From NCBI GenBank assembly GCA_031266415.1, contig JAISBB010000001.1:221556-285555 (forward strand): 64,000 nt of DNA, given 5' to 3'. The position numbers were made by a program, and so were the translations under genes. The stretch's first letter is position 1. Each line of letters starts with the position of its first letter. The DNA is from Oscillospiraceae bacterium (GTDB lineage: Bacteria > Bacillota > Clostridia > Oscillospirales > Ruminococcaceae). The notes under the pieces are model-generated. The model saw only the letters and a list, made by a program, of their open reading frames with translations. It was not told the DNA's origin and searched no databases. Shown in pieces: positions 1 through 44,720 of this stretch.

Positions 1-621
1 TGTATGGATTGTTCCGGATTGACAGCAAATATCTGTAGAAGCACTTGGCCTCAATCTGATTGGGGGCAGATTTTGGGGCCCCAACGGATGGGGTCGCACA
101 GAATTGGTCCATCGTTAGAAGCTGATGGATGGGGGCAGGTATGCCCACACGGGACAGCAGCACCAGCACCTGGCGATCTGGCGTTTACAGAAACAGCAGG
201 TCACATCGCAATTGTTGTCGCATGTTGTTCCGACGGGAGTGTTGTTCTGCTGGAAAGCACGCCGCCAAGGATTGCGTTGCGAGGAACACCGTCTACAAGT
301 GGCAGACGGGCGAGCGAAGCTGCAGCGCTTTCCGAGGAATTTATGGCCCGCTATCACCCTGGAGATTGCGAGCAGTTTCGGGGGTGGGAAACACAAACAC
401 TATGGCTTGTTAATAACCCTTGGATGGATGACCACCCACAAGTACGAGATACATTAAGTCTTTTTTGTCATCACAAAGCAATAAATGAGTATGCCCTTTT
501 TAAATTTAACCAACGTGTTGTTACAGATCGCACAGGACTGCGGAGAATGGACCCGCGCGAGGTGATGGAACGAGTCGTGACGTGGTGGGCTGCACAACGT
601 GGCGAAGCATTAGACCATTGA
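1..621 (+). CDS. NlpC/P60-like cell-wall hydrolase, 3' part (gene starts upstream of the window)
   Basis: The frame is open from nt 1. A DCSG catalytic-Cys motif (MDCSGL) is followed about 60 aa later by GDLAF..GHIAIVV, the Cys/His arrangement of NlpC/P60 papain-like hydrolases. The first ~400 nt are visibly G+C-rich and generate shadow ORFs. Confidence 0.5.
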   Translation, partial: CMDCSGLTANICRSTWPQSDWGQILGPQRMGSHRIGPSLEADGWGQVCPHGTAAPAPGDLAFTETAGHIAIVVACCSDGSVVLLESTPPRIALRGTPSTSGRRASEAAALSEEFMARYHPGDCEQFRGWETQTLWLVNNPWMDDHPQVRDTLSLFCHHKAINEYALFKFNQRVVTDRTGLRRMDPREVMERVVTWWAAQRGEALDH

Positions 622-900
622 AACAAAATATTGGCAAAGAGTTGACTAATCAGGGGTTGCTGGAATTCACAACCAGGCAATGGGAACAAATTTGATAGAC
701 ACAGTGCTTTTTGAGCAGGAGTGACAATTTAGATAGCACAGTTTGTATTAGTAATTTTTATTCCGTCAGTGACGCACCTGGCGCAGTGGCTAAAGCAGTG
801 GTAACAGTTGTACTAAGCATGTTGTTGAAAATTATTACGAGAAAAAATACAAGTGTTGATTGAAGAGTTTGTTAAATTTTGTTGTGATAATTCTTGGTGG

Positions 901-977
<77 letters not shown>

Positions 978-1043
978 AAAAATGAAGTAATGCAAAAAAG
1001 TGTTCCCCTTCCCTTCTAGAAAATTATTTTGCGAGAGATAAAT

Positions 1044-1119
1044 GGGGATGTAGCTCAGCTGGGAGAGCATCTGCCTTGCACGCAGAGGGTCAGGAGTTCG
1101 ATCCTCCTCATCTCCACCA
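1044..1119 (+). tRNA. tRNA-Ala (anticodon UGC)
   Basis: GGGGATGTAGCTCAGCTGGGAGAGC... with anticodon loop CTTGCAC, the G3:U70 identity pair and an encoded CCA. Confidence 0.95.
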
Positions 1120-1329
1120 CAAGTTGTTTCCAAATTTTAGATGTTGGTTCGTGCTTTTTGTTTCAGCAAAAAGCAGGAACTAGTATCTTGTTGAAAGCAA
1201 GAAACTAGAAGTTGTACATTGACAATTGAATAGTGAAAACTGCGATAGATAGAGTATAATTTGTTATTTTTAGGAAATTAAAATTCCGTAAAGGGTAACA
1301 ACTACAATCAATTAGAGCAGAAAGAACAT

Positions 1330-4182
<2,853 letters not shown>

Positions 4183-4228
4183 TAGTTCTTGCATTGCAGT
4201 TTACATTATTCGGTTTTAATGTGCAAAA

Positions 4229-4344
4229 TCCGGTGTAGATAACGGCAAGGGAACACCTGTTTCCATACCGAACACAGAAGTTAAGCTTGCTGGTGCCGAA
4301 AATACTTGGCGGGAAGCTGCCCGGGAAAATAGGAATATGCCGGA
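4229..4344 (+). rRNA. rrf: 5S ribosomal RNA
   Basis: About 116 nt containing GAACACCTGTTTCCATACCGAACACAGAAGTTAAGC. The terminal helix pairs TCCGGTG at the 5' end with ATGCCGGA at the 3' end. Confidence 0.9.
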
Positions 4345-4410
4345 ATAAATAGGAATTGGCGAAGGGTTGTTTAAACTTCCCTTCGCCAGTTTAAGATCAT
4401 CTTAAAATGT

Positions 4411-4486
4411 GCACCACTAGCTCAGTTGGTAGAGCAACTGACTCTTAATCAGTGGGTCCTGGGTTCGAATCCCTGGTGGTGCACCA
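4411..4486 (+). tRNA. tRNA-Lys (anticodon CUU)
   Basis: GCACCACTAGCTCAGTTGGTAGAGC... with anticodon stem-loop ACTGA-CTCTTAA-TCAGT. The acceptor GCACCAC pairs with GTGGTGC, and CCA is encoded. Confidence 0.9.
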
Positions 4487-4492
4487 AGGGAT

Positions 4493-5476
4493 ATGGGACA
4501 TTGGATTTCAAGAAAGGCAGTGTGGAACATTTTGAAAGATGGCTACGGCAATCCAAAAAAGTGTTTAGCAAGTTGGTTTTGTGTTATGCTGACAATTTTC
4601 AGTTTTTGTAATCTAAAAACTATTGCGGCAATAGGCCCGAATAAGCTGCAGTGGCCACCAGATTGTTTTAAAAATGAGCAATTTACTTTTTTGGTTGATA
4701 AAACCCAGAAGTTTGCGTGCTTACTCTATTGCTTAAACAGTGATAAAAGTGATGAAAGTAAAGTGACAATCCCGGCAACAATAAAACATAACGGGGACAA
4801 TTTGGAGGTTGTTGACATTGAACATGAGTTCTCTAACCGCCATCCATCACCCGAGCGTGTGAAAATTGTGGAAATAAAAAACGGCGTGCGAAAGTGGAGC
4901 CCAACTGCACTTGGTGCCTTTTGTAATCTAGAGAAATTGCATATCCCAAAATCAGTAAGAATAAAGGACGGGACCATGTTTAGCGGGCTACCAAAAAACA
5001 TTGCAATTAAATTAAACCGCAAAGACTATAAATATGAAAATGATACACTTTACGATGCAAAAAAGCGAATTCTTATTTGGTGTAACATTTATGGGAATAA
5101 ATATGTCGCCCCCTCAAGCCTAGAAGTAATTAGCAGAAATGCATTTTGTAGTTCTGAGGTAAATTGTGTGGACTTAACCAAGACAAAAAATTTAAAAAGT
5201 ATTGGGCCATACGCTTTTGCAGGTAAGGAAATAAAAAGAATTTCCATTCCGGCAAGTGTACAGAAAATTGGGAATGGTGCGTTTTTTGGCTGTCCATTAG
5301 AATCTGTAACATTTTTAAAATATAATCCCAAACTAATTATAGGTTACGATGCATTTTTTGAGGAAAGTGGAAAAAATCCACAGATTAAAGTACCAAAAGG
5401 CACAAGTGAATTATTTAAAAATAAATTAAAAGTGAGTGGCATTTGGGATAGAAAATCAGCAAAAGCGTGGCGTTAA
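4493..5476 (+). CDS. BspA-type leucine-rich-repeat (LRR_5) protein; start uncertain
   Basis: Repeated IP.SV..IG..AF..C motifs typical of PF13306 (for example ISRNAFCSSEVNCVDL, ISIPASVQKIGNGAFFGCPLESVTF). The ORF opens 7 nt after tRNA-Lys, so the true start is probably internal, for example M32 at 4586. Confidence 0.6.
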   Translation: MGHWISRKAVWNILKDGYGNPKKCLASWFCVMLTIFSFCNLKTIAAIGPNKLQWPPDCFKNEQFTFLVDKTQKFACLLYCLNSDKSDESKVTIPATIKHNGDNLEVVDIEHEFSNRHPSPERVKIVEIKNGVRKWSPTALGAFCNLEKLHIPKSVRIKDGTMFSGLPKNIAIKLNRKDYKYENDTLYDAKKRILIWCNIYGNKYVAPSSLEVISRNAFCSSEVNCVDLTKTKNLKSIGPYAFAGKEIKRISIPASVQKIGNGAFFGCPLESVTFLKYNPKLIIGYDAFFEESGKNPQIKVPKGTSELFKNKLKVSGIWDRKSAKAWR

Positions 5477-5495
5477 ACCAAGAGGCTTTCAATAA

Positions 5496-5571
5496 TCCTC
5501 CTTAGCTCAGTTGGTAGAGCATGCGGCTGTTAACCGCAGGGTCGTTGGTTCGAGCCCAACAGGGGGAGCCA
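5496..5571 (+). tRNA. tRNA-Asn (anticodon GUU)
   Basis: TCCTCCTTAGCTCAGTTGGTAGAGC... with anticodon loop CTGTTAA, T-arm GTTGGTTCGAGCCCAAC and an encoded CCA. Confidence 0.9.
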
Positions 5572-5600
5572 ATGGTCCTTTTCTAAACAATTTCTAATCA

Positions 5601-5630
5601 TTGGTATGCAGCTGTTAACCGCAGGGTTGG
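5601..5630 (+). pseudogene. Degenerate partial copy of the tRNA-Asn D/anticodon region
   Basis: GCTGTTAACCGCAGGGT (5611-5627) is identical to 5526-5542 of tRNA-Asn, and the flanking TTGGTA..TGC also aligns. No acceptor or T arm is present. Confidence 0.5.
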
Positions 5631-5648
5631 CAACTCTTTTGTAAATAT

Positions 5649-5725
<77 letters not shown>

Positions 5726-30704: not shown

Positions 30705-31619
30705 TTAAAAAACTTCTGTAATTTTAACGGCTTTCCTGCCGCCGAAAATCCCCACACGACCACGAAACCACTGTTCTCCACGCACATTCACCAAAACAGA
30801 AGAATCCGTAAAATTATCTAACATCATAATATCACCAGGATGCAACGACAAAACATCACCCAAATCCAATGCTGTTCCACCCAAAACAACATTTACATCA
30901 ACTTCTGTTTCTTTAATGTGCTCTAACATCAAACTCTTCTTTTGCCACATTTTATCACTTTCATCAGCACCCAAAAACCGAGTTCCAAGATTTCTAAACA
31001 CTGTTGTTAAAAACTCGACAGGCAAACAAAAACAACAGCTGCCACTCACCGGTGGGAAATCTAATTTCATATCAATAACCAAAACCACAACATCTTTATT
31101 TATGTGCCTGGTTAACCCCGGCGAAGACACAATTTCTGTGCAAGAAGCAATTATGTCAATATAACTTGACCAAGCAACTTCAACTATTGGAATTACATTT
31201 GCAACAACAAAACTTCGAAGCAAACTTAATTCAAGGTCTGTGAATTCATGGTCTTGTTTCAAATCAGCATCTAACCCGCCAAGTAATTTATTTACTATGT
31301 GGTGCCCAATCAAGCACGGGAATAACAATACGAAATGATTTTCAACATAACCTACCCCTTCTTTTATTCTTGTGTCAACAACGGGTAAAATTACATCACT
31401 TGAATATTGCTGAGAAAAATCGCCATAAACCATCTCTTGAATCGAGGTTACGTCGCACCGCGTGGCAACACCAAACAATCCCGTTAATTTGTTTGCAAAT
31501 GTTTTCGCAAAGCAATCAAAAACACAACCAACAAGCCGTACATTGTCTTTCGTGAAACGCCGCGGGGTTTTAAAATTATATTCCTGGACTCGTTCTTGAT
31601 TTAGTTTGCGCAAGTCCAT
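30705..31619 (-). CDS. fliM: Flagellar motor switch protein FliM (no N-terminal CheY-binding peptide)
   Basis: YNFKTPRRFTKDNVR....F..FA..F...L aligns with the YDF.RP.RFSK.Q.R block of FliM. A C-terminal SpoA-like domain is present (GDIMMLDN......V.V.G...F.G..G). Confidence 0.85.
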   Translation of the reverse strand: MDLRKLNQERVQEYNFKTPRRFTKDNVRLVGCVFDCFAKTFANKLTGLFGVATRCDVTSIQEMVYGDFSQQYSSDVILPVVDTRIKEGVGYVENHFVLLFPCLIGHHIVNKLLGGLDADLKQDHEFTDLELSLLRSFVVANVIPIVEVAWSSYIDIIASCTEIVSSPGLTRHINKDVVVLVIDMKLDFPPVSGSCCFCLPVEFLTTVFRNLGTRFLGADESDKMWQKKSLMLEHIKETEVDVNVVLGGTALDLGDVLSLHPGDIMMLDNFTDSSVLVNVRGEQWFRGRVGIFGGRKAVKITEVF

Positions 31620-31685
31620 TTAACGTACCCCCGTTCTTTAACTTATTTTTTTCTTACTTACCACAAAAAGAAAGCAGCTTAAGAA

Positions 31686-33161
31686 CTATCGGCCTGCGCG
31701 TGCAATTTCTTTTACAGACTCTAGTGCAGACCCCAAGCAACTAACAACACTAGAAACCGAAGCAGCTGAGACATTTGCGGAAATAACGTTGTCGGTCTCA
31801 TCTATATTTGAGCCTTTCAAAAAGCCCGCTTGCAAAGTAGCAACAGCGGTATCTGTATCCAGCACTCGAAACGGCCCAGAGCCCGGCGTCGTTTGCAACT
31901 TGCCGCCGCCTGCATCAGCCAACCCGGCGGCATTTGGCGTATCGACAACGGCAAGCCGGAACACAACACGCCGCGTTCCCTTGTAAGAAACTTCGAAATC
32001 AAAACCATTCCAACCAGGGGCGGTGGCACCAGGGGGCATAACGATACTCTCGAAAGCCTGCAAATTTTCCTTCCGGCACGGCTGTGCTGGGTACCCTGAG
32101 TTGGGGTCTCCGACGTTAAGTCTTCCTGGTAGGTTGTTATTGCGCCCAAACGCGCCATCAGAGTCGAGGTGTCCTGGCTTCCACGGCGGCAGAAACAAGT
32201 CATCGCGCATCCAATTTGGATTCATCCATCCCACCAAATCGCTGCCGTCGCTCCGTGCCAGCATCCAGGAACTTGGTTCCTCGCCGTCGCCGAGGGCGAC
32301 AGTCCGAACCGAAACGTCACCAATCGCTGTTAAACTCACTTCCGCACCGCCACCGCGATTCCCACTCCAACGCCCTCCAAACCCGACAGGGGCGGCGTCG
32401 AACTGTCTGGTTGCAGGGTTCCACGGGCCTGCGTACTGATTTCGAGTCTGTGCATCGATTGCCACAATCGGCGTCCCAAAAATAATAGGGTAAACCTTGA
32501 TAAAGTCGGGATGGTTCCGTCCTCCCGCCTTCGCGCCGTTAAGTGGCGAGCAACCAATACCTGCACCTGGAGCAGTTCGCGGTACAAACAAAAATCGCGA
32601 CGCGTTTGCGGGGCCCCGTCCCTCCGGCCTGTCTGCCACGCCAGTCCAGGCCCCCTGGTACGCAAACGCTGCATCCACGTCAGGTGGTCCTATTGGCATT
32701 AAATTCACAGCCGCTGCATCGGCCTCCGCCATACCGTGCGTAGACAAATATTTTCGATAGTTCCAATTGTCCCAATCTTCACCAGTCGTCGGGTCCTTCA
32801 ACGGAGTTTGCGCAAAACGGTGCATACCGGCAGCCGCCTGCGGGTAACAGCAAAGTGCATACTGGTGATCATTTTCCAAACAAAAACAAATGGAGTTTCC
32901 TACTGCCACATGTTCGTGGGGCGCATCAGACGGAACATCACCAAAAAACCGGGCAACACCGGTCGTCTCCGCGCCAGGGCGGCCCGCCGAAGTTCCACTT
33001 CCACCTTCGCTGGGAATTACAGTGAACCCCTTGTCGAGGCCGTAAACGGCCCTCCGCGCTGTCGCGCCAAGTAGATGACCCGCGCCAGCCTGCGCAACAT
33101 TTTCCTGTTGCATCCTTTTTAACATTCGCAGATTCGTTGCTGCTGAACTTAATCCACCCAT
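31686..33161 (-). CDS. G+C-rich, highly divergent axial protein in the flgE (hook) position
   Basis: Strong RBS (AAAGGAGAG-N7-ATG). The N-terminus LSSAATNLRMLKRMQQENVAQAGAG and the C-terminus LQAGFLKGSNIDETDNVIS weakly match the axial-protein terminal motifs. Its position between flgD and fliM supports the call, but the central ~400 aa are unrecognisable. Confidence 0.5.
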   Translation of the reverse strand: MGGLSSAATNLRMLKRMQQENVAQAGAGHLLGATARRAVYGLDKGFTVIPSEGGSGTSAGRPGAETTGVARFFGDVPSDAPHEHVAVGNSICFCLENDHQYALCCYPQAAAGMHRFAQTPLKDPTTGEDWDNWNYRKYLSTHGMAEADAAAVNLMPIGPPDVDAAFAYQGAWTGVADRPEGRGPANASRFLFVPRTAPGAGIGCSPLNGAKAGGRNHPDFIKVYPIIFGTPIVAIDAQTRNQYAGPWNPATRQFDAAPVGFGGRWSGNRGGGAEVSLTAIGDVSVRTVALGDGEEPSSWMLARSDGSDLVGWMNPNWMRDDLFLPPWKPGHLDSDGAFGRNNNLPGRLNVGDPNSGYPAQPCRKENLQAFESIVMPPGATAPGWNGFDFEVSYKGTRRVVFRLAVVDTPNAAGLADAGGGKLQTTPGSGPFRVLDTDTAVATLQAGFLKGSNIDETDNVISANVSAASVSSVVSCLGSALESVKEIARAGR

Positions 33162-33410
33162 TTTTCATCTCTCCTTTTCTCATCTTTTTCTCTACGGCAA
33201 CAATATTTTTGCCGCGGACATCACAAGCACAAAAATTAAATAACCAACAATCAAAACATCACCATATCATCATTCCGCCTCAAAGAACTACAAACGCTCC
33301 GAGACTTTTTCAAAAACGAATACATCTTCGCAATAAAATCTTTTTCTTTCAACAGAGCAATCAATTCAAAGAGAAAATCAGCGAAACAAATTATTCGCTA
33401 TCTATTTCAA

Positions 33411-34361
33411 TTACACAACCTTCCACTCTTCCGCCGGCGTTTTTTTATTCTGACCCTGGCCCAAATGGTTAATAGCCGCGTCGATTTTCCTTTTTAAGTT
33501 ACCTATGCCATTGTCATTTTTAAACTCAATTAGTTTTGTGTTCACCCGGTTTTTGGCGATAACCAACAAACGATATTTTTGTCTTCCTGCTTCTTTTGCA
33601 TCTTCAGAGCCTAAATCAATCCCTTCCTGAGTCTTTTGCATATCATCATCAATTTTCGCTAACAAAGCATTCCATTTTCCACCTAAATCATTTAGAGTAG
33701 CACGGAATTCAACTAATCGGTCACACAAATTTTTTCTCACTCCATTAGAGCGCTGTTTCTTTTCAGCCATCGCAATAAGGGCATCAATTCCTTCTTTAGT
33801 AAAAGTCATATCGTCTTGTAACTGCTGCGCCCTGTTTTCATATTCCGTAACAATTGGAGGAGTCACGCTAACTGCAGCCTCTGCTGAGACTGCCCCAAAA
33901 ACCCGATCTGCAGGAATCCAATCATCCCCAATCAATAAAGAAATAGTATTGCCCTGTTTCGAAACGGCTTTCACTTTACCTACATGCAAATCCGCATCAC
34001 CCGGGGACTGAAAACTAACAGAGCTGTCAATCAATTTCTGCGCAGTTGAGAAGGCTTTCTGTTTTGCGGCTTTTTCCATTGTGTCAGAAACACGTTGCAA
34101 CATTTCTATATTTGCCCCAGCCAAGGCAATATCCACAGCACTACCGGCACCACCACCACCAGATCCCAATCCAGCGGCAAGGTTTTGAGTAGCAATAGCC
34201 ACAAATTTCGCCGTTGTGGCCGCATTCCATTTCTCTTTTTTGCCACCTTCTGGCTTCTTCAATACTAGCTCTCCATTGGGACCCAAAGTAACAGTGGCAG
34301 CATTTTCGTTTTTGTGTCTTTCGTTAAGCTTCGCCAACAACGCACTTGAAACAATACCCAT
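33411..34361 (-). CDS. flgD: Flagellar hook-capping protein FlgD-like with a long C-terminal extension
   Basis: ...ANIEMLQRVSDTM... then AQKLIDSSVSF....GKVKAVSKQGNTISLLIGDDWIPADRVFGA resembles the FlgD Tudor-like core. It lies between fliK and the hook gene, and about 160 extra helical residues follow. Confidence 0.6.
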   Translation of the reverse strand: MGIVSSALLAKLNERHKNENAATVTLGPNGELVLKKPEGGKKEKWNAATTAKFVAIATQNLAAGLGSGGGGAGSAVDIALAGANIEMLQRVSDTMEKAAKQKAFSTAQKLIDSSVSFQSPGDADLHVGKVKAVSKQGNTISLLIGDDWIPADRVFGAVSAEAAVSVTPPIVTEYENRAQQLQDDMTFTKEGIDALIAMAEKKQRSNGVRKNLCDRLVEFRATLNDLGGKWNALLAKIDDDMQKTQEGIDLGSEDAKEAGRQKYRLLVIAKNRVNTKLIEFKNDNGIGNLKRKIDAAINHLGQGQNKKTPAEEWKVV

Positions 34362-41397: not shown

Positions 41398-41799
41398 CTA
41401 AATCTGCGTATTAATTAAGTTTTTTATGCCGTCTACACCCAAACTCGCAAACTTTGCCGCTGCTTTCGAAGAAACCGCGAATTCTCGCGCAGCCAACATG
41501 ACCTCTGCCGTTGAGACCTTTTCTCCATTTAAAGAACGCACCGCATTTTTCTGGTTCTCTTTTTCGGACTTCGTAACACGCCCCAAAACACTGGCACAAG
41601 AAGCTTCTAGACTAATTGGCGGCGAAGCCACGGCCGCAGCCTTATCGCCAACAATCGCAGGTGGCGGCATAAGACTCGCCAACAAATCTGAGAACCCAGA
41701 ACAAGGGCTGTGTGTCTTTTGCGAGGTTCCATCACAAAAACGAGCAAAAAGTCCCGAATTCACATTCAAAAGGTCTGGTGTTTGCCGAGCCATAGTCAT
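41398..41799 (-). CDS. fliE: FliE-like flagellar hook-basal body protein (divergent)
   Basis: The C-terminus VSTAEVMLAAREFAVSSKAAAKFASLGVDGIKNLINTQI resembles the FliE C-terminal helix that ends ...MQI. Lies between flgC and fliF. Confidence 0.55.
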   Translation of the reverse strand: MTMARQTPDLLNVNSGLFARFCDGTSQKTHSPCSGFSDLLASLMPPPAIVGDKAAAVASPPISLEASCASVLGRVTKSEKENQKNAVRSLNGEKVSTAEVMLAAREFAVSSKAAAKFASLGVDGIKNLINTQI

Positions 41800-43426: not shown

Positions 43427-43699
43427 TTAGTTCCCCCGGCGTGGGTTGTAGGGTTGCCCATAACCGCTATCAGCAACCCTCTGTAACGCAGCGTTGAACC
43501 TCTCTCCTAAGGTTTGTGTTTGTTGTGTTTCTTGGCGTTGCGGCGGACGTTCAGGACCGACAGTGTCCCTATACGGGGTGCTACTGCGGGCGTCGCCAGG
43601 CGTGGCACTTCCATCGATCTCGATTTGGTATTCTTCGCCGGCACCACCAATAGCAAGCAAATCTACCTCCGTAAGTGTTTCAAAATCTAGCTTTTCCAT
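43427..43699 (-). CDS. 90-aa Cys-free acidic/Q/P-rich peptide with a double-glycine-type leader (or a FlgM-like disordered protein)
   Basis: It has an AAAGGAGAA RBS, its own promoter and its own terminators. The N-terminus MEKLDFETLTEVDLLAIGGA fits LSxxELxxIxGG if processing follows GA. The core is G+C-rich. Confidence 0.6.
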   Translation of the reverse strand: MEKLDFETLTEVDLLAIGGAGEEYQIEIDGSATPGDARSSTPYRDTVGPERPPQRQETQQTQTLGERFNAALQRVADSGYGQPYNPRRGN

Positions 43700-43743
43700 T
43701 TTTCATTCTCCTTTCAAATTCAAGAAAATATTTTAGTGAGGTC

Positions 43744-44115: not shown

Positions 44116-44391
44116 TTAGTTCTCTTCCTCTCGTTTTGCAAAACATTCACTACAATAAACTGGCCGACCTTCGCTTGGTTTAAATGGGACCTTTGCTTCC
44201 GCGCCACAGCTAGCACATGCAGCCACATACATCTCACGTTTTGCACCGTTTCTTTTTCGTAAATCTCTACATTCTTTGCATCGTTGCGGTTCGTTAACAA
44301 ACCCCTTTTCTGCAAAAAATTCTTGCTCGCCAATTGTGAAAATAAACTCTGCACCACAGTCTTTGCAAATTAATGCCTTGTCTTCGTACAT
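44116..44391 (-). CDS. Zinc-ribbon protein (CxxC-x17-CxxC duplicated)
   Basis: CKDCGAEFIFTIGEQEFFAEKGFVNEPQRCKECR plus CASCGAEAKVPFKPSEGRPVYCSECF. The start is probably M37 (44391), which gives the usual ~90-aa size. The tracked ORF extends to 44499. Confidence 0.7.
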   Translation of the reverse strand: MYEDKALICKDCGAEFIFTIGEQEFFAEKGFVNEPQRCKECRDLRKRNGAKREMYVAACASCGAEAKVPFKPSEGRPVYCSECFAKREEEN

Positions 44392-44720
44392 CTCCAAAAT
44401 CTCTCCCAATATTGGTAAAATTTGCCCATTAACATGCCCGCAACGTAACTTGAAACTTAATTTGCCGCTTTCTGTTAGGGCTTCCACAGTCCCACTCACC
44501 GCCCGCTAACAAACCAGCAAACGAAAAAGTAAAACTTCACACGGTTATTTTACACGAAAGATTCAAAAAAGTCAACCTCTCCCACAAGCACTTTCCAAAA
44601 AATCACAAATCGATGCAAAACTAAACTTTTTAGCAACAAATACATTACAAACTAAATCGAACAAATTTATCTTCACAACACAGGCAATTCACTCACAAAA
44701 TTCTTCAACAAAGAATATAC

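Follow-up and report, generated by a model that had tools for sequence, protein, structure and literature searches.

Buchnera-type insect endosymbionts conserve the core of the flagellar export apparatus but have lost, or are losing, other functions of the flagellum. For the hook gene itself, one study lists flgE of Campylobacter jejuni as a hot region of recombination and its centre as hypervariable (PMC4866539, citing Luneberg 1998). Here we describe a gene, termed ORF X, in the flagellar operon of an uncultured gut Oscillospiraceae bacterium represented by a metagenome-assembled genome. It lies within a 64,000-nucleotide stretch of DNA (the window) in which the gene order is fliJ, fliK, flgD slot, ORF X, fliM, fliY, fliO and fliP, and it is recorded at NCBI as MDR1260360.1, 'hypothetical protein LBJ83_01410'. 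Judged from its position and sequence, ORF X is a homologue of a clade-specific, divergent FlgE of related Oscillospiraceae. We give an even chance to the fuller proposition that it is the organism's own flgE, diverged almost beyond recognition, and that its foreign-looking codons result from the import of a G+C-richer flgE allele.

A preliminary description of this DNA had noted that the gene at the place of flgE is barely recognisable, and this is borne out, position and C-terminal homology marking it as a relative of FlgE. The neighbours that it named, FliK, FliJ, FliM and FliY/N, were confirmed with Pfam and NCBIfam models, and the flgD-slot protein proved only marginally FlgD-like (E 0.002). 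ORF X lies where gene order places FlgE, after flgD and before either flbD-motAB or fliM, in an arrangement common to five related loci. There are no stop codons in its own frame, compared with 8–16 in the other five frames and approximately 20 in shuffled sequences (Poisson P ~2e-9); since about 20 would be expected, ORF X is a genuine coding gene. A good Shine-Dalgarno sequence is located 9 nt upstream, within the initiation region AGGAGAGATGAAAAATGG. A nearly identical initiation region (43696–43712) belongs to the other small G+C-rich ORF, which encodes 90 aa (43427–43699), and there are no further matches in the window. The coordinates of the features are collected in the table.

Table. 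Features at and around ORF X, with the related loci used for comparison.
Feature	Position in window	Strand	Evidence or source
fliM, downstream neighbour of ORF X	30705..31619	(-)	Pfam FliM and FliMN_C; 44–55% identity to relatives
Downstream spacer between ORF X and fliM, 66 nt	31620..31685	(-)	ORF map; gene maps of relatives
ORF X, CDS in flgE slot, 491 aa	31686..33161	(-)	Open frame; NCBI and JGI records; identical Logan contig
FlgE-homologous C-terminal half, residues 270–488 (C-terminal part of D1 and D0 helix)	31698..32354	(-)	hhalign, Smith-Waterman, BLASTP
Sole match to a curated axial-protein model, residues 394–458	31788..31982	(-)	TIGR03506 FlgEFG_subfam, 25.5 bits, E 9.6e-6
N-terminal half without detectable homology, residues 1–269, with 5 of 7 Cys	32355..33161	(-)	Null results with Pfam, PDB and Smith-Waterman
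Initiation region AGGAGAGATGAAAAATGG (Shine-Dalgarno and start codon)	33158..33175	(-)	2 matches in window, 0.00 expected
Upstream spacer, 249 nt, A+T-rich	33162..33410	(-)	flg_new (TIGR02530) stands here in relatives
flgD-slot gene, 316 aa	33411..34361	(-)	NCBIfam FlgD, E 0.0022
Examples of clade FlgE			PG1894_198 BNZN01000004.1; MAG Ncb351_bin1 JAISZR010000001.1; rumen and cecum MAGs RGIG1454, RGIG1955

Homology to FlgE was detected in the C-terminal half of the protein. Residues 270–488 match a profile of the clade FlgEs with an hhalign probability of 96.1% (E 3.6e-9) and reach Smith-Waterman z-scores of 8.7–13 against five relatives, and BLASTP against clade FlgEs returns 23–25% identity (E 5e-6 and 5e-5), again for this half only. 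A clade profile that includes ORF X in turn matches solved FlgE/FlgG structures with E-values of 3e-17 to 1e-8. The motifs VGW-N-N, A-x-P-C and G-S-N-I-D (as GFLKGSNIDE) are all found in this half, and the conserved C-terminal D1/D0 segment, comprising the G-x-L-E-x-S-N-V-D motif and the terminal helix, is present. Family cut-offs are not reached: the TIGR03506 score falls short of the curated value of 70.25 bits, and no FlgE equivalog model exceeds 15.7 bits, where 469 would be needed. Searches of ORF X against Pfam found neither PF00460, PF22692 and PF06429 nor any other family at E <= 1, and a PDB sequence search gave nothing at E <= 10. The HMM searches thus agree that the gene is barely recognisable, with a TIGR03506 match at E ~1e-5 that is below cut-off and no Pfam family, and public annotation overlooks ORF X because all curated models fail.

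Both ends of the protein had been thought to resemble an axial protein, which holds for the C-terminus but not for the N-terminus, where the D0 helix (PF00460) and the D1 motif (PF22692) were not detected and residues 1–120 align to the relatives with z <= 1.7. At the position of the near-universal D1 motif A-I-x-G-x-G-[FY]-F in a MAFFT alignment, ORF X reads ICFCLENDHQY, a positional placement without statistical support. The N-terminal D0/D1 signatures required for polymerisation are not detectable in ORF X. A single-sequence AlphaFold2 model has a pLDDT of 31.9, too low to be of use. The count of seven cysteines given earlier was correct (residues 92, 94, 104, 105, 204, 362 and 475, alongside ten tryptophans), although cysteine is less of an oddity than it seemed, as every clade FlgE contains Cys, including the invariant one of A-x-P-C. 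No near relative or donor of ORF X was found among approximately 15 billion proteins and in plasmid and phage collections, the best match having 25% identity. When 1.8 billion representative proteins were searched exhaustively, ORF X itself was the only match; a profile search of a 5.8-billion-protein index (alignment A1) returned the query alone, and a FliM-based search of GTDB genomes had no match; a metagenome scan yielded mainly generic FlgE/FlgG N-termini plus one rumen-type relative.

The relatives that carry the clade FlgE are Oscillospiraceae from termite-associated assemblies, rumen and cecum. Their slot protein has 425–461 aa and scores 66–99 bits against TIGR03506, with three of the four tested passing the cut-off (L007, at 66.1, fails), and its best equivalog-level matches are mostly FlgE models. 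These proteins share with ORF X the slot, the motifs VGW-N-N, [FY]-x-A-x-P-C and L-E-G-S-N-V-D, the presence of Cys and the flanking spacers; those of L001 and L007 are likewise Gly/Ala/Pro-rich, and L007 also has a GC3 excess. They differ in aligning with one another over their full length at 30–73% identity, whereas ORF X aligns with them only at the much lower identity and over the half length given above.

Sequence divergence in this clade is distributed very unevenly over the flagellar operon. Between L001 and L007, identity is 92% for FlhA and 85% for FliM, compared with 47% for FlgE, 35% for FlgD and 55–57% for FlgG, and in the strain-level pair L093 and L001 it is 92% for FliM and 73% for FlgE. 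Expressed as ratios of −ln(identity), the axial proteins evolve ~2–4.5 times faster than FliM, while the export machine is 60–90% identical. The window organism shows the same contrast with its relatives: FliI (74–78%), FlhA (70–71%), FliG (73–74%) and the export apparatus overall (60–78%) are well matched, whereas FlgE retains ~23% over half its length and FlgD no detectable identity. FliM, itself well conserved, was our yardstick for divergence. The flgD-slot protein is less recognisable than ORF X (hhalign probability 2.9% against the clade flgD-slot proteins), and all exported axial proteins of this organism are below family cut-offs. The weak recognisability remarked on earlier is therefore real but not special to ORF X, being common to all exported axial proteins here.

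Attention had also been drawn to the spacers on either side of ORF X and to a hairpin in the upstream one. All of these exist, but they are less unusual than supposed, since spacers (82–119 nt) flank flgE in all relatives. Downstream of flgE, two relatives (L004 and L005) have flbD-motA-motB, which the rumen branch retains and the window lacks at this place, and three others have a spacer of 116–119 nt. Upstream, all relatives keep flg_new (TIGR02530), encoding 129–152 aa, at the place of the 249-nt spacer; tblastn gave no signal for a flg_new remnant in this spacer or for flg_new fused into ORF X. The hairpin with its T-tract (33379–33400) is weak, the count of terminator-like hairpins around ORF X is not above shuffled expectation, the predicted RNA fold of the spacer is not unusual (z −1.2) and no sigma-70-like site was found in it on the strand of ORF X, which together speak against a promoter, terminator or riboswitch of its own in the spacer.

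The anomaly in G+C content and third codon positions that first singled out this gene is real. ORF X has a G+C content of 0.558 (GC1.618, GC2.539, GC3 about.516) in a window of 38.8% G+C, in which the other 49 ORFs have G+C of.32–.48 and GC3 of.24–.44, and it is the largest G+C island outside the rRNA operon (300-nt maximum.597; mean.381, sd.049). From its amino-acid content and the codon usage of the host, a GC3 of.353 would be expected, compared with.514 observed (z +7.9), while the other genes of the window have z from −2.0 to +2.6, leaving ORF X as the one strong outlier of 50. The G+C richness of the gene is made up of two layers, its amino-acid make-up and a synonymous G+C excess. With respect to the first, ORF X is rich in Gly, Ala, Pro and Arg and poor in Asn, Lys and Ile, as are the FlgEs of L001, L007 and L093. 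A native, amino-acid-driven composition, one of the readings offered initially, consequently explains GC1 and GC2, which sister FlgEs share, but fails as a full account of a gene whose GC3 departs so far from expectation.

With respect to the second layer, fourfold sites are near-uniform in ORF X (A.23, C.22, G.28, T.27), whereas same-strand host genes have T at.34–.52 and C at.04–.17, a strand skew that is absent from ORF X. NNC codons are enriched, but AAG, CAG, GAG, CGG and ACG are favoured as well, so the shift concerns G+C in general and not just C at the wobble position. The codon log-likelihood is better under the usage of L001 than under that of the host, and is similar under L007 usage (−1.736). 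Within the gene, GC3 is.55 in codons 32–434 and.35 at the ends, so that the host-like character of the last ~40 codons stands numerically. The mosaic that had been read into it falls short of significance: G+C climbs and drops inside ORF X, but 37 of 200 permutations do as well as the two-change-point model. Elsewhere, the flgD-slot gene is only mildly G+C-shifted (GC3 z +1.9), and a mild to clear shift is seen in the fliE-slot gene and in the 90-aa ORF, which lies upstream of the flgB-slot gene.

Our preferred explanation is that ORF X would be the hook subunit gene of an already divergent FlgE lineage specific to gut Oscillospiraceae, in which the type III-exported proteins (FliK, FlgD, FlgE and rod proteins) appear to evolve at several times the rate of the export machine, and that the long branch to the window organism may have left FlgE recognisable only in its C-terminal D1/D0 half. 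The intact frame and strong Shine-Dalgarno sequence suggest that the protein is still made, in which case it would probably be exported by the conserved FliI/FlhA/FlhB/FliPQR and polymerise on the rod as a hook or hook-like tube. The synonymous G+C excess would then stem from recombination, in which all or most of the gene was replaced by the flgE of an unsampled clade member richer in G+C. The imported allele would still be unameliorated in the window organism, and alleles of flgE would be exchanged repeatedly within the group. The recombining flgE of C. jejuni offers a precedent (PMC4866539). On whether such an import accounts for the synonymous excess, we are evenly divided. A horizontally acquired or recombinant hook gene, proposed at the outset, is thus the reading that we favour for this excess, against which stand the missing donor and the intragenic change-point, to be expected if crossovers fell in conserved ends of the gene, that did not reach significance. 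None of the sampled clade members has a genome GC3 >=.52, so the donor stays hypothetical. ORF X is equidistant from its relatives, being no closer to the G+C-richer FlgEs of L001 and L007 than to the A+T-rich rumen FlgEs, and no flanking repeats, integrase, silent cassettes or diversity-generating retroelement were found within 25 kb of it. Extreme divergence needs no import, since the flgD-slot gene is equally unrecognisable with an almost host-like GC3, and the G+C shift of the fliE-slot gene and the 90-aa ORF hints at something broader than the swap of one gene.

A possible but doubtful alternative is that the gene was inherited vertically and acquired its composition in situ through a gene-specific G+C drive, for instance selection on the mRNA or, at a recombination hot spot, GC-biased gene conversion. 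Such a drive would raise G+C at all three codon positions and so give rise to a Gly/Ala/Arg/Pro protein and to faster amino-acid change. The excess does recur at flgE, with a GC3 z of +6.4 in L007 next to +7.9 in the window organism, and is slight yet still positive in L001 and L093. All codon positions are raised, Gly, Ala, Arg and Pro being increased and Asn, Lys and Ile decreased relative to the rumen-clade FlgEs, and the failure to find a donor for import also favours such a drive. However, the fast-evolving flgD, fliK and flgG genes lack a GC3 excess of this kind, and an excess of +0.16 to +0.20 GC3 seems far above the effects reported for biased conversion in bacteria. The direction of synonymous change was polarised with a G+C-rich outgroup in the sister lineages L001 and L093 rather than in the window organism. 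There, flgE shows 28 S>W and 12 W>S changes, unlike the neighbouring fliM and fliY (38 S>W and 55 W>S; Fisher p 0.0025), and no net AT-to-GC synonymous flux in flgE was found in these two lineages. This implies that in L001 and L093 a flgE once rich in G+C is approaching the composition of its host by decay, which fits a post-import state and not an ongoing drive. Recombination at flgE in another organism, as described in the Campylobacter study (PMC4866539), also counts in favour of the drive, as does a link between recombination and GC3 that has been documented in bacteria (PMC4450053).

We regard it as unlikely that the product of ORF X descends from a hook subunit but has ceased to form a canonical hook, in a flagellum reducing to an export apparatus of the Buchnera type, with the gene either relaxed or repurposed for a secreted or surface protein that keeps the C-terminal axial module. 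Such a reduction would be in keeping with a well-conserved export gate and ATPase alongside axial proteins that are every one below family cut-offs, with the loss of flg_new without trace, with the unmatched N-terminal 269 aa and the apparent replacement in the alignment of the universal D1 glycine motif, and with the absence from the operon of flbD-motA-motB (present beside flgE in L004 and L005), fliL, flhF/flhG and che genes. Our view covers 64 kb of the genome, so motAB and flagellin genes may lie elsewhere. Against reduction, the 491-codon frame is intact and preceded by a strong ribosome-binding site, the C-terminal 220 aa are still collinear with the clade FlgE, including G-S-N-I-D, and a gene under relaxed constraint should drift to lower G+C where mutation is A+T-biased; this reading alone leaves the codon anomaly unexplained. 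The earlier suggestion of a non-hook cargo protein with axial termini is conceivable but gained no positive support; homology spans the C-terminal 220 residues and not merely the outermost ends, and the N-terminus is not detectably axial-like.

It is highly improbable that amino-acid content, or translational selection acting on a native gene with high expression, accounts for the composition by itself. All clade FlgEs do have high GC1 and GC2, and NNC codons are enriched in both ORF X and the flgE of L007, but GC3 is 7.9 sd too high after conditioning on amino acids, the shift extends to AAG, CAG, GAG, CGG and ACG, and flgE GC3 matches the host in the rumen and cecum relatives. In this genome the NNC fraction is.11 for ribosomal protein L1 and.28 for L11, and this lack of an NNC preference argues against translational selection; we consider this account already largely refuted. 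An artefact, whether a chimeric assembly (the source being a metagenome-assembled genome) or a G+C-rich non-coding element or structured RNA misread as an ORF (RNA genes often forming G+C islands in A+T-rich genomes), is barely credible, since an independent Logan assembly is 100% identical over 20.9 kb including ORF X, ruling out a chimera as far as this can be tested, a structured RNA or non-coding island is ruled out by the open frame and by the lack of any Rfam match, even when the gathering threshold was relaxed to E <= 1, and the protein-level homology to the clade FlgE is significant.

These results place ORF X, publicly 'hypothetical', in the flgE slot and family, and as a well-documented extreme case it calls for caution with homology-based flagellar inventories in MAGs. 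The decoupling of axial and export proteins inside one operon is striking, and its possible causes include diversifying selection by host, protists or phages, or loss of motility. Returning to import, a synonymous G+C excess in flgE of two lineages that is decaying in two others offers a natural system for the study of recurrent allele import at a surface gene. More speculatively, and with a low probability in our estimation, the hook gene of the L001/L007-type subclade, apparently from termite guts, might be a hot spot that repeatedly takes in or generates G+C-rich alleles, which decay afterwards; hook divergence would have run away, with the N-terminal polymerisation half replaced here and the export machine frozen, and ORF X might be a re-tooled exported surface protein of a flagellar apparatus from which flg_new and the motor genes beside flgE have disappeared.

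In comparison with known systems, ORF X would resemble flgE of Campylobacter jejuni (Luneberg et al., 1998; Yahara et al., 2016, PMC4866539) in being a hot spot of variation or exchange in which change lies mainly outside the conserved terminal segments. The variation in C. jejuni is among strains of one species, D0 and D1 are intact and no large compositional shift is reported, whereas in ORF X the whole N-terminal half is beyond recognition. The window operon is like the Buchnera-type reduction in conserving the export core and in having neither motAB nor che genes in the operon, and unlike it in that its axial genes are intact ORFs rather than missing, the status of motility genes being known for the 64 kb covered. 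From the FlgE typical of Firmicutes (TIGR03506; PF00460, PF22692, PF06429), ORF X differs in its low model score, its lack of a Pfam domain, its seven Cys and ten Trp, its 55.8% G+C in a 38.8% region and in residues 1–269, corresponding to D0, the start of D1 and D2, which are unrecognisable. It shares with this family the slot between flgD and fliM, ~220 C-terminal residues that are homologous via the clade profile, the G-x-L-x-G-S-N-[IV]-D motif with a C-terminal helix after it and a typical length of 491 aa, and the findings on ORF X do not amount to a new kind of system.

The ORF in the flgE slot of the flagellar operon is a real, protein-coding feature, because its frame is open (no stops, compared with 8-16 in the five other frames and ~20 in base-shuffled copies; P ~2e-9), no Rfam family matches the region even at E <= 1, and an independent Logan assembly (run SRR14710922) matches the window at 100% identity across 20,915 bp that include the gene. 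An assembly artefact is essentially excluded. The product contains seven cysteines, as the preliminary description had counted, and ten tryptophans, and the spacers that were said to bracket the gene measure 249 nt and 66 nt.

Features of the window discussed in the text
Feature	Position	Strand	Remarks
flgE-slot CDS	31686..33161	-	491-aa ORF
Initiation region of flgE-slot gene with Shine-Dalgarno, AGGAGAGATGAAAAATGG	33158-33175	-	start-codon spacing good
flgD-slot gene	33411-34361	-	316 aa; NCBIfam FlgD match only E 0.002
fliE-slot gene	41398-41799	-	second GC3 outlier: G+C.48, GC3.44, z +2.6
Whole flagellar operon	21827-42735		
90-aa ORF upstream of flgB-slot gene	43427-43699	-	G+C.531, GC3.473 vs host ~.31
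Initiation region of 90-aa ORF, AGGAGA-ATGAAAAATGG	43696-43712		
Double treble-clef zinc-finger protein	44116-44499	-	127 aa; PF13451 plus PF23477
rRNA operon	1-5722		16S end, two tRNAs, 23S 1332-4182, 5S 4229-4345, further tRNAs

Database searches bear out the description of this gene as barely recognisable. No Pfam family matches its product at E <= 1 and no PDB sequence at E <= 10; the sole curated match is to TIGR03506 (the FlgE/F/G subfamily; E 1e-5, residues 394-458) at 25.5 bits, well under the cut-off of 70.25 bits. When 1.84 billion cluster representatives were scanned exhaustively with phmmer, the protein itself and three repetitive giants were the only hits, and a word-indexed search of 5.8 billion proteins returned only the protein itself, whose public record is 'hypothetical protein LBJ83_01410' from an Oscillospiraceae MAG.

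Related loci were reached via the neighbouring FliM, the closest relatives being 44-55% identical. They comprise another Oscillospiraceae MAG (L001), its strain-level kin (L093), SRA-derived Logan contigs (L002, L004 and L005) and assemblies labelled 'Clostridia bacterium' that carry FACS and PG1894 isolate codes (L003 and L007); rumen and cecum MAGs (L090-L092) came from a search of GTDB species representatives, and one further contig (L008) from a metagenome scan. Wherever a locus extends upstream of fliM, the slot behind the flgD-slot gene encodes a protein of 425-461 aa that lacks Pfam domains. These proteins score 99, 97, 75 and 66 bits on TIGR03506 (members tested), their best equivalog-level matches are mostly FlgE models, and their profile matches solved FlgE and FlgG structures with E values of 3e-17 to 1e-8, so that the slot is occupied by a FlgE-type protein in the relatives, as the assignment by gene order had implied. 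In L007, fliF is present as one ORF of 145 aa and another of 424 aa (27-1795 of Clostridia bacterium PG1894_198, BNZN01000004.1), which points to a frameshift or pseudogene or else to an error in the single-cell assembly.

The window protein aligns with the clade FlgE profile over residues 270-488 (hhalign probability 96.1%, E 3.6e-9), is 23-25% identical to relatives by pairwise BLASTP (E 5e-6 and 5e-5), scores 8.7-13 sd over shuffles in Smith-Waterman comparisons and has the motifs VGW-N-N, A-x-P-C and G-S-N-[IV]-D in common with the clade. Residues 1-269 have no significant similarity to anything, relatives' N-terminal halves included (z <= 1.7), and ICFCLENDHQY stands at the position collinear with the near-universal A-I-x-G-x-G-F motif. 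The proposal that both ends resemble an axial protein is therefore supported for the C-terminal side but not for the N-terminus. Because the slot is shared and the C-terminal half matches the clade profile, we assign the gene as homologous to a clade-specific FlgE by position and, over its C-terminal half, by sequence. Position and C-terminal homology identify it as the hook gene of this lineage, and the intact frame, ribosome-binding site and conserved export apparatus suggest continued expression and export of its product.

As a rule, the axial proteins of the window organism are hard to recognise. Neither the flgB-slot nor the fliE-slot protein has a significant family match (the single Pfam match of the latter is FliE, E 0.043), FlgC reaches 32-35 bits against cut-offs of 102-170, and TIGR03506 gives 57 and 31 bits for the two FlgF/G-like proteins. 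The flgD-slot gene is less recognisable than the flgE-slot gene, with a nearly host-like GC3, and its product has no profile similarity to the relatives' flgD-slot proteins (hhalign probability 2.9%). Cytoplasmic and membrane components are well conserved with L001 and L007 (FliI 78%, FliG 73-74%, FlhA 70-71%, FliP 67-73% and FlhB 60-61% identity). Identities between L001 and L007 are 92% for FlhA and 85% for FliM versus 47% for FlgE, 35% for FlgD, 48% for FliK and 55-57% for FlgG; between L093 and L001 they are 92% for FliM, 73% for FlgE and 70% for FlgD. With distance taken as -ln(identity), FlgE evolves at ~4x the rate of FliM in the L001/L007/L093 branch and ~2x in the rumen branch, and a near-saturated FlgE is expected at the window organism's distance (FliM ~50%). 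At equal FliM distance, the window protein scores 35 bits versus 164-172 bits for other pairs, reflecting either extra acceleration in this lineage or replacement of the gene.

The gene has a G+C content of 55.8% (GC1.618, GC2.539, GC3.516) versus 38.8% for the whole window and.32-.48 (GC3.24-.44) for the 49 other tabulated ORFs, and is the largest G+C island apart from the rRNA operon, which accounts for the other G+C-rich stretches. Amino-acid make-up common to the clade explains part of this: GC1 and GC2 are raised in all clade FlgEs, and the L001, L007 and window proteins are poor in Asn, Lys and Ile but contain ~13% Gly, 13-14% Ala and 6-7% Pro. Cysteine, singled out earlier as a peculiarity of this protein, makes up 0.9-1.4% of every clade FlgE. 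The claim of anomalous composition survives at synonymous positions, where GC3 is.514 versus.353 expected from amino acids and host codon usage (z = +7.9), the strongest deviation in the set (the other 49 genes range from -2.0 to +2.6). Codon usage fits the 46%-G+C relative L001 better than the gene's own genome, with L007 usage similar, and the four bases are nearly equally frequent at its fourfold sites (A.23, C.22, G.28, T.27) versus a strong T >> C skew in other minus-strand genes. Translational selection is ruled out because ribosomal proteins L1 and L11 have no NNC preference and the shift takes in AAG, CAG, GAG, CGG and ACG; pure amino-acid or expression effects are essentially excluded. 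The host-like last ~40 codons, previously taken to suggest a mosaic, are visible in the GC3, which is.35 at both ends of the gene versus.55 in codons 32-434, but 37 of 200 permutations matched the two-change-point model, which thus falls short of significance. Across the window, fourfold sites of minus-strand genes are T >> C and G > C, and plus-strand genes are rich in A and have a larger NNC fraction; this strong third-position asymmetry suggests a leading-strand location for the flagellar operon.

The initiation regions of the flgE-slot gene and the 90-aa ORF, which has no Pfam match, are nearly identical, and nothing else in the window matches (0.00 matches expected). Between nrdD and the flagellar operon sits the gene for the zinc-finger protein.

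After flhA, the window operon continues with a sigma factor, two FlgF/G-like genes, a radical-SAM gene, rimM and trmD. This layout is found in L001 and L007, whose branch has sigma - flgG - flgG - radical-SAM and lacks flbD-motAB beside flgE; L004 and L005 keep flbD-motAB there. A flgE-specific GC3 excess recurs in the branch that also holds the window organism's nearest synteny match (L007,.60 vs.46 expected, z +6.4; L093,.56 vs ~.50 in neighbours; L001,.50 vs.48 expected, z +0.9), and flgE GC3 is host-like relative to neighbours in the rumen and cecum relatives. When synonymous L093-L001 differences were polarised with L007, an outgroup itself G+C-rich, flgE showed 28 changes from G/C to A/T and 12 in reverse, unlike fliM plus fliY (38 and 55; Fisher p =.0025). 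Thus in these sister lineages of the window organism a G+C-rich flgE is decaying to genome composition, as an imported allele under amelioration does and a gene under continuing G+C drive does not.

The chances are about even that the synonymous excess in the window gene arose by recombination, which would have swapped in an allele from a G+C-richer, unsampled member of the clade. Such import would fit the status of flgE elsewhere as a hot region of recombination (PMC4866539). The collections and flanks searched gave no link to mobile elements, plasmids or phages. A G+C drive acting in situ and specific to flgE, for instance biased gene conversion (PMC4450053), would explain the recurrence in flgE, the shift at every codon position and why no donor turned up, but we consider it rather unlikely, since the L093/L001 polarity runs the opposite way and the size of the effect also counts against it. 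Unlikely, too, is a partly orthogonal reading in which the protein is no longer a canonical hook and the flagellum is under reduction. The operon contains no flg_new, flbD-motA-motB, fliL, flhF/flhG or che genes; within the 64 kb analysed, the traceless loss of flg_new, the lack of motor genes beside flgE and an N-terminal half beyond recognition fit reduction, which however leaves the G+C rise unexplained.

What emerges is a well-delimited anomaly of ordinary identity, the hook gene, whose unusual history is only partly explained; the clade's decoupled, very fast exported flagellar proteins and the recurrent flgE-specific G+C excess are notable. The protein descends from a FlgE and probably works like one, but its score and its N-terminal D0 and D1 signatures fall short of curated membership, and for this reason we file it as an extreme FlgE variant and not with the ordinary members. 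In evolutionary behaviour it most resembles the hypervariable, recombining flgE known from Campylobacter jejuni, from which the present case differs in scale, half the protein being beyond recognition, and in its shifted composition.
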